Shown: positions 40,701-49,700 of the stretch, piece by piece | Layout: the number at the start of each line of letters is the position of its first letter | How positions within the stretch are numbered: position 1 is the stretch's first letter | NCBI GenBank assembly: GCA_963422365.1 | Contig: OY729426.1 | Span: 1,920,001 to 1,984,000, forward strand | Length of the DNA: 64,000 nucleotides | DNA from: Nitrospirales bacterium | Lineage (GTDB): Bacteria; Nitrospirota; Nitrospiria; Nitrospirales; UBA8639 | Direction of reading: 5' to 3' | Position numbers: made by a program

Positions 40701-43700
40701 GGGGACAATCGCGGGATTAGCGCAACACTTGCCAACCTCGGCAATTTGCATGTAGACGCCGGCGAATGGGAACGAGGCCGCGCTTACTATCTTGAGGCCT
40801 TGGACGGCATGGAGCTTTTTCAAGACGATGCGGCCAAGGCGGTCTTGCTCTCTGATTTAGGGTTAGTGGCAAAGGAAACTCGACACTTTGTGCAAGCCAG
40901 GGACTATTACTCGGAGTCGATTCCCTTAATGCAGCGAGTCGGAAATCACGCGGGTCAGGCCGACGTGTTTAAGATGATGGCGCGGATGTACGTGGCATGG
41001 GAACGTTATGATGATGCCATAGCCTGTGCGCAAACAAGCCTGGCCATTGCGGAGCGGCTTCATGATGAATTACGTATGGGTGGAGCTTGGTACGTGATGG
41101 CCGATTGCCATAACGCAAAGGGCGATGAGGATCAGGAAGCCCACTTCCTTCATCGCGTGGTTCGCGTGGATCGTAAATACGGTTTGCCCAAACTTGAAGA
41201 AAACACCAAGCGGCTTGAAGCGCTTCTGACTCGGCTGACGAGTAAACGTGCACAATCAATGGCCAGAGGCAAGGTGCCTCATGATTGACGGATCTTGCCA
41301 GGGATGGCAACAAGTCCAAGACCATCTGAAGAAAACCACCCCAAACTTTGTACAATATCAACCCGGTGGCGCGTTAACCCTTGAATTGGATGATCAAGAT
41401 TGGCAACTCGAAATTACACCAGCCGGCTTCCTTGTTTGTCAGGCGGGGTATGCGCTGGAAGACATGCAGAGCCTGCTATCTGATGGCACGGCCGAAGATC
41501 TGGGAAGCGATGAATTGGCCAAACAAGCCAAGTTTTACATTCAACAGGTTGTCTCGAAATATCGTAATCATCTCATAAAGGACGGCTTTAGCGAACGCAT
41601 CGAAATGAATGATGAGTACGTTGCGGTGTTTTTCGAGCGTCCGGTGGATTTCGACAATCTGTCGCAACTTGAACAAGTGATCACACGATATCGACAGCAG
41701 TTTGCTGCCACCTGAAATATTCCTCATCTCAGTCTCAAAAGGGATTTTTTCATGAATACTCAACTTCCCATTCGTACAATGGATGAATTTCGTGATGCTG
41801 TCTCTACCTTTCGCTTGTCACGTGTTTTTGCTACGGCATTGGATCTCGACCTCTTTACCTGCATGGGACATAGATTTTGGACCCCCAAAGCCTTGGCCAA
41901 AACGTTGAAGGCCAGTGAACGGGGAATCGAGATTCTCCTTCGCAACTTGGAAACCGCCGGCTTACTCAAACAACGGGGACCTTCCTATGGCGTAGAGAGA
42001 GTCGGTCGCACTTTTTTGAATCGAAACAGTCCGGCTTATCAAGGGGCCTATTTGGATCTCCTCCATCGCCAGTGGGAAAATTGGGCACAGCTCACTAATG
42101 CCGTTCGAACGGGCAAACCGATTGAAAATGAAGGACCGGATGAGCCGGAATATCGACGATCATTTACCTGGGCGATGCATCAGCGCTCCGTAAAGCCTGC
42201 AAAACAAGTGGCCGCCCAACTCAATCTGAACAACGCAAAAATGCTGTTGGACGTTGGAGGAGGGCCCGGCACGTATGCAGTAGAGTTTTTGAAGAAAAAT
42301 TCTACGTTGCAGGCAGGGATCTGGGATCGTCACCCAGCTCTTGAAGTCGCCCAAGAAATCGCCAAACCGTTACGACATGGCAAGCGACTGTCCTATTACC
42401 CAGGCGATCTTTTTGAAAGTCCGGTGCCTGGAAAATTTGATGTGATGTGGGTATCGAACGTACTGCACATTTTTTCGCCGACTGAAAATAAAACCCTACT
42501 CCGAAAACTCAAACGGGCGCTCAACCCCGGAGGACGCATTCTGATTCAAGATACCTTCCTTATGAACAAACCAGGATTCGACATCGCAGAAACCAACCTG
42601 TTTGCGATCACGATGCTCTTATTCACCCCAACGGGGAACACCTATAGCGCCCAAGACGTACAACAGTGGCTCAAGACCTGCGGACTCAAAAAAACCAGGT
42701 GCCTTCAGTTGAAAAAAGGAACCGGTGATTGGGACGGGGTCATTATTGAAGGAAAGGTGGAGAAGCCGTACATCCCCCATAAATAATGTCGCAGCCGCAT
42801 CCCATGCGACCTAACCGCGTATCTGACTAACGACCTACCATCTATCGATGGTACTCAGGACAGGTAAGATCTCGCCGCGAAAAAATTCATTCGGATCCCT
42901 ACGACGCAGGCCTTCATGACCTTTATACTGAACATTCTGTACCACGTTGTTATCCAGCCTCTGGAAATCAGTTTCGGATTTCTATTCCAGGCCTTTACCG
43001 AACAGACGACCGTCGGCATGGCCATTGTGCTGATTAGCCTGGTGGTCAATGTGCTGCTGTTGCCGGTGCAGTGGCACAGTGATACTGCGCTGGCGCGATT
43101 GCGGCAAAAACAGAAAGCCATCGAGCCGACAATCCATGACATCAAACGGGCGTATCGGGGATCAAAACGATTTTTCATGTTGCGTACGCTGTATCGGCAG
43201 GCCGATTATCACCCGGCCATGGAGCTGAAAACCACCCTCGGACTTATGGTTCAAATTCCATTTTTCATCGCCGCCTGGCGATTTCTAAGCCAGGAGCCGG
43301 CGCTGGTACAGACAGCGTTCGGGCCGCTGTCGGACCTCAGCCGTGCGGATGGCCTGGGACCGCTGGGGCTCAATCTCCTGCCGTTGCTGATGACCCTCCT
43401 GAGCCTCATCTCGGCCATGCTGTATCACCAACGCCACGGGCGCGGTGCGTGGCTTCAGACCGGCGGGCTGGCGGTGGTGTTTCTGATTCTGCTATATCCG
43501 TCAGCCTCCGGCGTGGTGGTGTACTGGACGGTCAACAATCTGTTTTCGCTGCTGAAACATATCGTTCCTCTGCGCCGTCCTGTCGCCATGACGGATGACG
43601 ACCCTGCCAGCCTCCTGTTTCTATCCTCATTGAGTGCGCGTCGAGTCCACGAAGTGTATGCGCTGTCGGTCTGCATTCTGCTGGCGACCATCTTTTATAT

Positions 43701-46700: not shown

Positions 46701-49700
46701 CGAACAGTTGATCGCAATCCAGCAGGGGCTTGAGATCGATCGAAGGTAGGTGGATGGAAAATACCTCCAGTGTCTTCAATTGAACAAGGAACCGGTAATT
46801 GGGAGGCATGATTGAAGCCATAGAGAAGGAAAAGGAGGCGTAACAATACAGGAAAACACAACAAATTGCCTATCAGGCATATCCCCCTCGGGCTCAAGCT
46901 TCAGGCTATTCTCCCTCTCGTCTTACGAAGCAGAGAAGAGCCCATGTCCTCCCAACAGGATGAGGAAAAAATTCAAGACTGCACTTGTGACAAGAATACA
47001 GAAAAAGTGGATTGCCTCGTCAGGCCCAGGGCTGACCTGAGCCACCGTTGCAACATCCAATGCCAACCCGATTGTTCCATACATAACCCCAACCATAGAA
47101 GTCCATCGTTTTCCAGTCAGACAGACTCCACCGACTAGTAATGGAAGTCCGAATCCAAACCCGTACCAGATAGATTGATGGAGATTTAAGGTCAATTCTT
47201 TCTCAGGTTGAAGGGCATCGAAGGCCATGGCACTGACGAAAAGTCCAAAACAGAGCGTTGCCATCAGGCGATACGTCCAATTTCCTGCACCGGTTGGGGT
47301 CATGAGAAGTCCATGGCTAAAGAGAGTATGTTGTAAAGGTCGTTTGTTTCCGTGGAGTTCCTCACACGAGTGGGCTCCGCTCTGATTCGAAACCATTTTG
47401 CCGTCATAGGATGTAAAGTCAAGGCCTAAGCCCCACTCGTCGATTGACACTCCAATTCAGCCAAGCCTAGAATGCCAACAATCACAAGGGGGAGGGCGTA
47501 TGACACAATCTCATTCTATTCGAAACGTGGTTTTTACGTCATATGTTGGTACTGGAAAAACTTCTCTCGTTGAAGCCCTGCTGTTTTCTGCCGGTGTGAC
47601 GTCGTCGATGGGTACTACCGCTAATGGAACTACCGTGGCCGACTTCGAAGCAGAAGAGATTCAGCATCATCATTCCATGAATACGGCCCTTCTTCAGTAT
47701 GAGCACAAAGGGGTTCTCCTGACCCTGCTCGACACTCCAGGTTCGCTGGATTTTTTTGCTGATACCCAAAATACGATTCACGTAGCCGATGGCGCGGTGT
47801 TAGTCGTCAGCGCTTCAGGTATACGATCGGAACTGGATCGGGTCTGGGCTTCTATTCAAGCGCGTGAACTTCCCTGCCTTGTGTTTATTAATGAACTGAA
47901 TAAGGAACGAGCGAATTTTGAATCCATTTTAGAAGAGATTCAGAAAACGCTTGAGACCAAATGCGTGCCGATTGCCTATCCCATTGGCGAAGAAGCGAAT
48001 CTGCGAGGCGTGGCGGACTTGGTGACGCAGAAAGCCATAATCCCTGTACCCAACAGTCATAAAGTACTGGAAGAAGAAATACCTGCAGACCTGAAAGATA
48101 AAATTTCAAAATTCCGGAAACAATTAGTTGAAACCGTAGCTGAGACCAACGACGACCTGGTGGAAAAATATTTGAGCGAAGGTGATCTGACTCAAGAGGA
48201 AATCCTTCAAGGGCTGATCCTGAGCACGAAAACCCGTCAGTGTCTCCCTGTCTTGTGCGGTTCCGCGATCCTGAATCTCGGCTCCACCGTACTGCACAAT
48301 GCGATCATTCAATACCTGCCTTCTCCAGCAGAAAGAGCTGAAACGTTTCCGTTCACAGGATCTCATCCCCACACGAGTGAAGAACTCGTGCGGCCCATGA
48401 GCGCAGAGGAGCCCTTTTCCGGCTTTGTATTCAAGACGACCATCGATCCCTTTATGGGCCGACTCACGTATCTTAAGGTTTGTTCAGGAGTGCTCGAAGC
48501 CGATTCAACCTTTTTCAATTCCGTGAGAAACATCAAAGAAAAAGGGGGACATCTGTATTCTTTGCAAGGAAAGAAAAGCACTCAAACGCAACGAGCGACG
48601 GCAGGTGAGATTGTGGTCATGGGAAAACTCAAGGAGACCCAGACGGGTGAAACGATTTGTGCCGATAAGTCTCCGATTATTTTTCCTCCGGTGAAGCTCC
48701 GTCGGCCCGTGATGTCGTTTGCGCTTGAGCCGAAATCGAAGGGTGACATTGATAAAGTGAGTCTGGGTCTCCACAAGTTGGTCGAAGAAGATGCGTCATT
48801 AGAATTTATCAGAAATGATGAAACCAAAGAAATGTTGCTCAGTGGAGTCGGGCAAACTCATATCGAGTTGACCCTGGAAAAACTCCACCGGAAATACGGA
48901 GTGGACGTCAATCTTCATACACCGAAAGTCGCGTATCGCGAGACCATTCAAAAAATGGCCCAGGCCCAGGGAAAATATAAAAAACAAACAGGCGGCCATG
49001 GGCAATACGGTGATTGTTGGCTTCAGCTTGACCCTTTACCGCGCAATGGCGGATTTGAATTTCTCAATAAAATCGTTGGAGGGGTGATTCCACGGAATTT
49101 TATTCCTGCGGTGGAAAAAGGCGTCATTGAAGCCATGCACGAGGGCATTCTCGCAGGCTTCCCGGTCGTGGACGTGCAAGTGAAGGTCTATGACGGGTCC
49201 CATCATCCTGTTGACTCTTCGGAAATGGCCTTTAAGGTCGCGGCCTCGATGGGGTTTAAAAAAGCCATGGAATCGGCACAGCCCGTTCTCCTCGAACCGA
49301 TCATGATTGTTGAAGTGACGGTACCGGACGACGTGGTGGGCGCAGTGATTGGCGATTTAAACAGTCGGCGCGGTCGAATTCTGGGAATGGATACCAAAGG
49401 GCATAATCAAATCGTGAAGGCCGTAGTCCCGTTGGCTGAAATTCTGAAGTATGCGCCCGTCTTGACATCCATTACCGCTGGGAAGGGTTCTTATGCCATG
49501 GAATTTTCAGGCTATGACCAGGCGCCCCGTGAGGTGGTCAATAAGGTCGTCGAGGAATACAAAGCCGCGAAAGCGGCGGCTTCATCCTAAGGCAGGGTCT
49601 TGCCCCCGGTCCGAGGGCCCTCACGTCTGAGCTATATAAATCCCAGCACGTCTCTTAACTCGGGGGTTTTAATACGACAAAAAACGTTCTCGACTCTCGA

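Follow-up and report, generated by a model that had tools for sequence, protein, structure and literature searches.

The window, a stretch of 64,000 nucleotides from a Nitrospirales bacterium (contig OY729426.1, positions 1,920,001 to 1,984,000), contains two neighboring genes that are separated by only 9 nt. Both genes are real and form an acquired cassette of 4 kb, flanked by a direct repeat. The features, in positions of the window, are the following:

42713..42734, + strand: left copy of a 22-nt direct repeat, within the O-methyltransferase gene upstream, at its 3' end.
42916..45411, + strand: gene 1, an ORF of 831 aa with a YidC-like domain, a five-helix bundle and a predicted outward-facing alkaline-phosphatase-fold transferase.
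42916..43575, + strand: YidC-like domain, residues 1-220 (Pfam, alignment, structure model).
43636..44130, + strand: second membrane bundle of five helices, residues 241-405 (structure model, loop charges).
44137..44152, + strand: C16 tract, in frame, encoding a poly-Pro linker shortly ahead of the catalytic domain.
44233..45408, + strand: alkaline-phosphatase-fold domain, residues 440-831 (fold search, conservation, EptA alignment).
45421..46749, + strand: gene 2, an ORF of 442 aa with a signal peptide, a YxDP membrane peptide and a TagF-like phosphotransferase domain.
45421..45501, + strand: signal-peptide-like leader, residues 1-27, read by eye and ending in Ala-x-Ala right before Tyr28.
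45502..45582, + strand: YLDPGTGS motif and single membrane helix, a fused microprotein and proposed shuttle through Tyr28 (motif, homologue comparison).
45646..46725, + strand: TagF-like cytoplasmic domain (Pfam, profile search).
46783..46804, + strand: right copy of the repeat (91% identity), inside a decayed duplicate of the O-methyltransferase gene end.

Since the right copy of the repeat lies in this decayed duplicate, the cassette is an insertion. A promoter and terminator scan remained at chance level. The fusion encoded by gene 1 was found in 1 of 36 relatives from the genus, as the first-pass annotation had noted, and in 1 of 24 other members of the order. Across the host phylum, the partner encoded by gene 2 is present in 3 of 401 genomes, the same three that carry the fusion, and in one family of 201 genomes the peptide-TagF protein and the fusion occur in the same six.

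The description of gene 1 as a YidC domain joined to a second bundle and an alkaline-phosphatase-fold domain is borne out by the ORFs, Pfam and fold matches. The Pfam domain 60KD_IMP (PF02096) covers residues 34-217 with 73.4 bits (cut-off 35), while the curated YidC/Oxa1 model TIGR03592 is not reached (68.3 bits against a cut-off of 84.3) and no curated family matches the fusion. The structure prediction (pLDDT 78.9, pTM 0.58) places residues 1-225 on YidC 3wo7 (Z 15.9, rmsd 3.2 over 200 residues), reproducing the confidence of about 80 and the rmsd of 3.2 obtained earlier. The domain shares with YidC/Oxa1 insertases the fold, the five-helix core, the cytoplasmic coiled coil (Pfam, model, fold search and loop charges agree on these) and conserved polar groove residues. 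In contrast to the insertases, it is fused to an enzyme, its membrane-protein insertion is putative, and none of 268 fusion homologues has an Arg or Lys where E. coli YidC has Arg366 (N 208, S 35, T 11, Q 8, G 3, C 2, gap 1). In gene 1 this place is taken by Asn45, and that of Tyr517 by Trp204. The host has a separate housekeeping YidC (C1:724992-726734) with Lys at the groove place.

The remainder of gene 1 has the layout of LtaS, EptA (MCR-1) and PbgA, five membrane helices followed by an alkaline-phosphatase-fold domain with a Thr nucleophile loop (Z 18-22), as supported by model, fold and charge alternation; the domain is placed outside because of the loop charges of the bundle. The matches were LtaP (Z 21.8), LtaS (21.1), PbgA (21.0), MCR-1 (19.0) and EptA (18.2), with sulfatases level at the top of the list (Z 22.5); the Pfam Sulfatase model scores 24.5 bits over residues 443-729, slightly below its cut-off of 25. 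Among the 268 homologues, T488 (267, plus one Ser), D451 and H671 (267 each), and D728 and H729 (268 each) are conserved, and T488 falls on the nucleophile loop of E. coli EptA in an alignment (E 6e-4, probability 28). We take Thr488 to be the nucleophile and D451, H671, D728 and H729 to be metal ligands, as known for the family. Formylglycine sulfatases carry Cys/Ser-x-Pro-x-Arg at the nucleophile, a motif that is absent from the gene 1 sequence. A comparison with E. coli OpgB gave no meaningful match. Fold, key residues and topology are seen for this domain, and family knowledge points to phosphotransfer as its probable chemistry. What the fusion adds to the LtaS/EptA/PbgA plan is the N-terminal YidC-like domain and its obligate TagF-like and peptide partners, and its donor may not be a phospholipid.

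Gene 2, previously labeled as CDP-glycerol glycerophosphotransferase-like, indeed matches Glyphos_transf (PF04464) with 33.8 bits (cut-off 22.1), and profile searches retrieve Cps3D (1e-7), TarL and Bcs3. His174 and His286 are invariant in 53 of 53 TagF-like partners. These proteins differ from the TagF, TarL, Cps3D and Bcs3 CDP-polyol phosphotransferases by an N-terminal membrane peptide or YidC-like domain, and by neighbors suggesting phosphonate, choline or other donors. Such donor genes recur beside the fusion as had been proposed, but not everywhere: PEP mutase/decarboxylase is found in 11 and some nucleotidyltransferase in 31 of 75 fusion loci, counts that have no random control. The lack of a donor gene beside the host copy had been held against the proposal; it is no objection because genes for PEP mutase, phosphonopyruvate decarboxylase-like subunits, an AEP transaminase-like protein and a nucleotidyltransferase lie at other places in the host genome. 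CDP-choline and CDP-glycerol are not favored as donors, as the host genome (98.6% complete) contains neither a choline kinase nor a glycerol-3-phosphate cytidylyltransferase (TIGR01518) above cut-off.

The two proteins also occur together in other genomes. A six-frame search recovered the partner in the fetched stretch at 50 of the 75 fusion loci (43 within 200 nt), in line with the proximity reported before, and it exists somewhere in the genome for 74. These loci are nearly all from gut or rumen Bacillota; homologues also occur in proteins labeled Photobacterium, Neptunomonas, Treponema and Desulfovibrio. The 95 homologues first counted underestimated the family, which is far larger: each of the 150 top-scoring clusters (50% identity) is 818-1106 aa long and reaches at least 816 bits.

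The first-pass annotation described a two-gene system. However, the system consists of four modules, the fourth being the YxDP peptide at the N-terminus of gene 2, which had been missed. This peptide is usually encoded by its own microprotein gene, and most of the standalone forms compared share the leader layout of gene 2. Tyr1, Asp3 and Pro4 are present in 98 of 98 peptides from loci picked by partner genes, only Tyr-x-Asp-Pro being invariant, and no Ser/Thr position is constant. The motif Thr was dropped as a candidate carrier since many peptides have Ala, Val or Met at position 6 (of the 15 variants with Ala there in the NoeA set, 13 belong to a single genus). The motif is present in 54 of 54 TagF-like partners at loci chosen by the fusion, and the peptide adjoins YidC-TagF fusions in 9 of 10 cases and NoeA in 35 of 36 NoeA-chosen loci, including nodL-(small ORF)-noeA of S. 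meliloti, where the 71-aa ORF is the same microprotein. Two partner-chosen loci have no peptide (L205, L252). The family is large: a profile made from motif-bearing sequences matches 4253 of 7172 candidate proteins at E values up to 10. The best 120 members of the family have no Pfam label, an NCBIfam model was found for 0 of 5, and an atlas search with the peptide gave no usable match.

The four modules are combined in three different fusion orders, [YidC-AP] with [peptide-TagF], [YidC-TagF] with a separate peptide and AP protein (AP, alkaline-phosphatase fold), and all separate (L126, L139, beside a glycosyltransferase-like and a faint glycosidase-like protein and without PEP mutase), and therefore they belong together. 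Among 80 motif loci, 44 encode NoeA and 11 a TagF-like protein, never both, and an alkaline-phosphatase-fold protein accompanies 31 of 38 motif loci of at least 5 kb. A YidC-like gene lies in the fetched stretch of 5 of 10 TagF loci and 1 of 19 NoeA loci of that size. No NoeA lies in the 75 fusion loci; the host carries a separate NoeA locus.

Together, these observations support the earlier proposal of a dedicated system for phospho-transfer from the inside to the outside, with a YidC fold put to new use. The best reading, to which we give a probability of about one half, is that phospho-groups travel on a tyrosine shuttle resembling DltX, which the YidC groove would move. The loader, the peptide, the mover with its YidC-like fold and the outer transferase would form a complex, in which the cytoplasmic TagF-like domain would take a CMP- or CDP-activated group, here most likely CMP-2-aminoethylphosphonate because the host has the phosphonate pathway elsewhere, and load it on the invariant Tyr. 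The YidC-like groove would then let the short N-tail of the peptide cross between the inner and outer faces, the weakest step, and Thr488 of the metal-dependent outer domain would take the group and pass it to a surface glycan or lipid. The outer location of the Tyr is predicted from the leader and charges, the covalent intermediate is proposed by analogy with DltX and PatA, and the movement of the peptide and its insertion or carriage by the YidC-like domain are putative. Modeling the full fusion together with residues 28-80 of the partner gave an uncontrolled score of 0.02, which counts neither for nor against the complex.

A Tyr shuttle that sits on a microprotein or is joined to an enzyme has its precedent in DltB-DltX-DltD and PatA-PatB, for which PMC12148441 describes an invariant Tyr within a short outer motif on a membrane microprotein, free or fused to the loader, between inner donor and outer transferase. 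In contrast, the present peptide would carry a phospho- rather than an acyl-group, has its motif at the N-terminus, and works with TagF-like and alkaline-phosphatase-fold partners instead of MBOAT and SGNH proteins; the likeness is thus one of analogy, not homology. As the loader is cytoplasmic, the Tyr would also have to travel further. PMC8920935 reports that E. coli YidC bearing R366N/A remains able to complement when residue 517 is Trp, and that the groove is open to the cytoplasm and bilayer, not to the periplasm. Repeated loading would therefore require the tail to move back in. We know of no precedent for such a return. S. mutans YidC2 also argues against the shuttle, since it has Trp at the Tyr517 place and yet its Arg is essential, as do the resemblance of the five-helix bundle to lipid-donor enzymes and the scarcity of dedicated YidC-like genes at NoeA loci. 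The interchange of two unrelated loaders, NoeA and TagF-like, on one peptide speaks in its favor.

The lipid-linked donor put forward in the first-pass annotation is the main alternative: the TagF-like domain could load undecaprenyl phosphate or a glycerolipid, which the YidC-like domain would scramble outward for LtaS/EptA-style use, the peptide being a docking or activating subunit. LtaS and EptA draw on phospholipid donors, the bundle and outer domain together match PbgA (residues 229-831, Z 21.0, rmsd 15.5), the groove Arg is lost in the fusion subfamily, and YidC is described as a lipid scramblase in PMC11997395. This scheme leaves the invariant Tyr unexplained, as well as the sharing of one peptide, its invariant residues on the opposite face, by two unrelated loaders; the YidC-TagF fusions moreover keep Lys at the Arg366 place, as insertases do (10 of 10 sequences). 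We consider it unlikely and rate the peptide-linked alternative higher. Still less probable is that the YidC-like domain is a private insertase, chaperone or scaffold assembling peptide, loader and transferase, with the group crossing within the complex and the Tyr being structural or gating the outer active site. The peptide does resemble a classical YidC substrate, with a short acidic tail, one helix and then a basic tail whose net charge averages +3.9, much like M13 procoat and Pf3 coat, and most NoeA loci do without a dedicated YidC copy, but an assembly factor would not need one-to-one fusion to either enzyme nor repetition alongside every gene in tandem arrays of as many as six transferases (L031). 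It is very improbable that the group ends up on the peptide itself, which would then be displayed with a modified tyrosine, or that the outer domain is a group-removing hydrolase: by fold, sulfatases and phosphonate monoester hydrolases reach the same scores as transferases, but the nucleophile is Thr rather than that of formylglycine enzymes, the neighbors are biosynthetic, and the presence of divergent tandem transferases alongside few loaders points to many acceptors.

Returning to the tyrosine shuttle, a general class can be proposed more tentatively, with odds somewhat short of even, in which a Tyr microprotein would be loaded in the cytoplasm by interchangeable TagF-like or NoeA enzymes and cycled by a groove of the YidC family, which would carry it in both directions instead of inserting it one way, to feed outer alkaline-phosphatase-fold transferases. 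To our knowledge, NoeA and NoeB have been host-range genes without known chemistry since 1995. The S. meliloti nodL-noeA-noeB operon (PMC9758233, PMC9048898) shares the microprotein and an alkaline-phosphatase-fold membrane partner; it differs in its loader, a kinase-methyltransferase, and such systems usually lack a dedicated YidC. That NoeA is a kinase is suggested by PMC9758233 and by its weak alignment to the kinase loop of WbdD, the fold lists being filled by the methyltransferase domain; this enzyme would load the same peptide with methylphosphate. In PMC9758233/PMC9048898, the small neighbor Lani_1193 appears in 65% of 816 neighborhoods, and the genes are read as effectors or as Nod-factor or envelope modifiers.

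The system is widespread and probably moves small phospho-groups from the cell interior to the surface, most likely on the microprotein Tyr. If so, the Oxa1 superfamily would gain a new function in small-group transfer, and the shuttle class would fill in the final step that many surface pathways for phosphonates and phosphocholine lack, together with a chemistry for NoeA/NoeB. It would address how activated phosphonates reach the cell surface, the steps after PEP mutase being said to "remain enigmatic" in PMC6697681. The literature open to our search, outside subscription papers and bioRxiv supplements, gave no description of a YidC/TagF/YxDP system.

Finally, the in-frame C16 tract of gene 1, already reported in the first-pass annotation, varies in length between samples, being C9 in one relative (G001) and C15 in the contig of run X3.

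The first-pass annotation had claimed two adjacent open reading frames, and both are indeed present, 9 nt apart, forming a cassette of about 4 kb:

42916-45411, + strand, gene 1 (the fusion), ORF of 831 aa
45421-46749, + strand, gene 2 (the partner), ORF of 442 aa

In gene 1, Pfam places 60KD_IMP over its cut-off at residues 34-217 and Sulfatase just below at residues 443-729. The YidC and LtaS/EptA/PbgA-like folds noted earlier were matched again by structure comparison of the predicted model (pLDDT 78.9, pTM 0.58): YidC 3wo7 gave Z 15.9 and an rmsd of 3.2 over 200 residues, while residues 440-831 matched sulfatases, LtaP, LtaS, PbgA, MCR-1 and EptA, all at Z 18-22.5, so that the fold alone does not separate transferase from hydrolase. 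Hydropathy and loop charge across 268 relatives indicate one helix at the N-terminus, the five of the YidC part and five further ones, and the alternating basic loops predict that the catalytic domain lies outside the cell. Of the family's clusters at 50% identity, 3263 score under 1e-30, fragments included, and the best 150 all measure 818-1106 aa.

Residues D451, T488, H671, D728 and H729 are conserved in 267-268 of the 268 relatives. The nucleophile loop of E. coli EptA aligns with the T488 loop (38 columns, E 6e-4, probability 28), and gene 1 contains no formylglycine motif. The system falls outside the sulfatases and the MBOAT-SGNH systems, and on the outer side it probably works like LtaS/EptA. 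Gene 1 is not a canonical YidC either, as it lacks the groove charge and scores under the TIGR03592 cut-off. None of the 268 relatives has Arg or Lys at the position of E. coli Arg366, where the host's own YidC has Lys. Precedents for this loss cut both ways: E. coli YidC R366N/A with Trp517 still works, whereas S. mutans YidC2, with Trp at the equivalent place, nonetheless needs the Arg (PMC8920935).

Gene 2 carries Glyphos_transf over the Pfam cut-off, and its profile matches Cps3D, TarL and Bcs3. It opens with a leader ending in Ala-x-Ala and the sequence YLDPGTGS, followed by a single hydrophobic helix and then a basic segment. The pair of genes proposed earlier as a two-gene system encodes four modules: the fourth, this YxDP peptide, had been missed. 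The motif YxDPG[TS]G is present in 54/54 partners at loci chosen by the fusion; in Bacillota partners no leader precedes it and a few residues separate it from the start. A metagenome motif scan gave at least 118 stretches. Among these 118, the motif stands in a closed ORF of its own, no more than 80 residues long counted from the motif, in 105 cases, and four are full TagF fusions. Numbered from the motif tyrosine, Tyr1, Asp3 and Pro4 are kept in 98/98 peptides from three partner-chosen sets. Residues differ at positions 5, 6 and 8, and there is no constant Ser/Thr; the peptide profile was built from motif-bearing sequences, and many sampled genomes are kin. The peptide is absent at two partner-chosen loci, L205 and L252. 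At another locus (L255:8496-10697), a 734-aa peptide-TagF frame has a C-terminus about 290 residues longer than usual.

Two unrelated enzymes accompany the peptide as candidate loaders. Among 80 motif loci with flanks, a 460-aa kinase-methyltransferase occurs in 44, a TagF-like gene in 11 and both in none; among the 38 of at least 5 kb, 31 have an alkaline-phosphatase-fold protein and nine have neither loader. The 460-aa protein is of the NoeA family: it bears that name in the Atlas, shares 32% identity over 98% with 57 Sinorhizobium plasmid records, and has WbdD as its best PDB profile match. NoeA is described as a kinase-methyltransferase (PMC9758233). When loci were chosen by NoeA instead, five of 65 plasmid records were sampled and all five had the small microprotein ORF, one of them between nodL and noeA; overall, the ORF was found in 35/36 NoeA loci (five from plasmids, 30 from the host phylum and that of the host itself). 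NoeA occurs in 14/26 genus relatives. The host's NoeA-type system, a second one in this genome, lies outside the window (L257, C1:963625-966768, - strand), with an 80-codon microprotein (YLDPGSVS), a NoeA-like gene and a NoeB-like one that occupies two overlapping frames. At loci L081 and L127, the microprotein adjoins a VTC-domain gene with neither NoeA nor TagF, possibly a third loader type.

The modules are joined in several orders. Within one Bacillota family (201 genomes), six genomes have peptide-TagF and these six are also the ones with a strong fusion match, while two others give a weak one-domain match; ten further genomes have a TagF-like domain without the peptide in 630-725-aa frames. 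Eight of these frames, and two of the same type from another search, have a YidC-like N-terminal part (8/10 by profile, 2/10 by eye); by visual reading, the residue at the Arg366 position is Lys in 10/10. A separate YxDP microprotein adjoins 9/10, an alkaline-phosphatase-fold membrane protein is found at 7/10 and donor genes at 6/10. All four modules are separate genes at L126 and L139. Therefore, peptide-TagF, TagF-YidC and YidC-transferase fusions all exist. The partner lies within the fetched stretch at 50/75 fusion loci and within the genome for 74/75; these loci, mostly from rumen Bacillota, are the top 75 among more than 628. In the host phylum the partner was found in 3/401 genomes. The transferase genes form tandem arrays of up to six, with four to six YidC-transferase genes in rumen Clostridia (L031, L010, L013, L015, L001). 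Full-length YidC paralogues (~525 aa, Lys/Arg kept) lie inside clusters at L097:1220-5858 and L141:4185-7737; the neighbours are a PbgA-like and a TagF-like gene in one case and microprotein-NoeA-NoeB in the other.

The four modules travel and fuse together, with an outer Thr/metal site and an invariant tyrosine on a peptide shared by two unrelated loaders. The finding is real and widespread, and that the parts form a system is very likely (probability about 0.9). No description of it was found in the literature that could be searched; NoeA, NoeB and their conserved small neighbour are already in print, without the chemistry. By analogy with the acyl-Tyr shuttle of DltX and PatA (PMC12148441), the loader would charge the invariant Tyr, the short peptide tail would pass along the YidC-like groove, and the group would be handed to Thr488 and then to a surface acceptor. 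We give this tyrosine shuttle an even chance; the likeness to DltX is perhaps in the middle step. Its difficulty lies in the topology: the YidC groove is described as open to cytoplasm and bilayer only (PMC8920935), so the fused 442-aa enzyme would have to cycle its tail. In addition, a YidC-like gene is nearby in only 1/19 NoeA loci and 5/10 TagF loci of at least 5 kb; housekeeping YidC may serve the others. A lipid donor with the YidC-like domain as a scramblase is the better of two unlikely alternatives. That the YidC-like domain is a private assembly factor appears more doubtful still.

Regarding the donor, raw counts (without a random control) place a nucleotidyltransferase near 31/75 fusion loci, PEP mutase/decarboxylase near 11/75 and a choline-kinase query match near 8/75. 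PEP mutase is over the cut-off in the host and in 37/37 relatives tested (38/38 genomes). The host has a phosphonate gene set:

C1:2437665-2443351, decarboxylase-like subunits, AEP transaminase-like protein (331.8 bits, below the 360.8 cut-off), nucleotidyltransferase, CDP-alcohol phosphotransferase

Such nucleotidyltransferases activate AEP (PMC6697681). Neither a choline kinase nor an over-cut-off glycerol-3-phosphate cytidylyltransferase was found in the host. Taken together, CMP-AEP would be its likeliest donor. With C1:2321328-2322959 included, the host has a core phosphonate pathway accompanied by a CDP-alcohol phosphotransferase and a flippase-like protein, which suggests phosphonolipids.

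The cassette is flanked by a repeat:

42713 and 46783, two copies of a 22-nt repeat, the right one a degenerate duplicate of the end of the upstream gene

In four genus relatives the upstream gene is followed, within ~150 nt, by the counterpart of the sequence from 47047 on; the relative G001 carries the cassette at this same site (84%). GC at third codon positions is 0.64-0.71 in the cassette versus 0.51-0.55 in four neighbours. A C tract in the fusion gene encodes a poly-Pro linker. G001 has C9 here and run X1, which may be the source, C16; run X3 reads C15, hence out of frame, the sole difference in 4001 bases, and contigs of run X5 break there. The library types of the runs are unrecorded and the assembly's overlapping ends read 41 versus 38 G for one tract, so that phase variation through the C tract is no more than plausible, at about even odds. 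These contig ends (C1:1-58333 and 2437343-2495695) share 58 kb at 99.8%, which means that genes there are duplicated by assembly; the overlap contains a very long repetitive gene region. The whole contig has several G/C runs of 15-41 bases and no A/T run longer than 9. Elsewhere in the window, an island after purF (33303-38592), absent at the same place in G001, encodes a PHP-domain/SMC-like ATPase (934 aa), a Schlafen/AlbA_2-HATPase protein (413 aa) and fragments, and looks defence-like.
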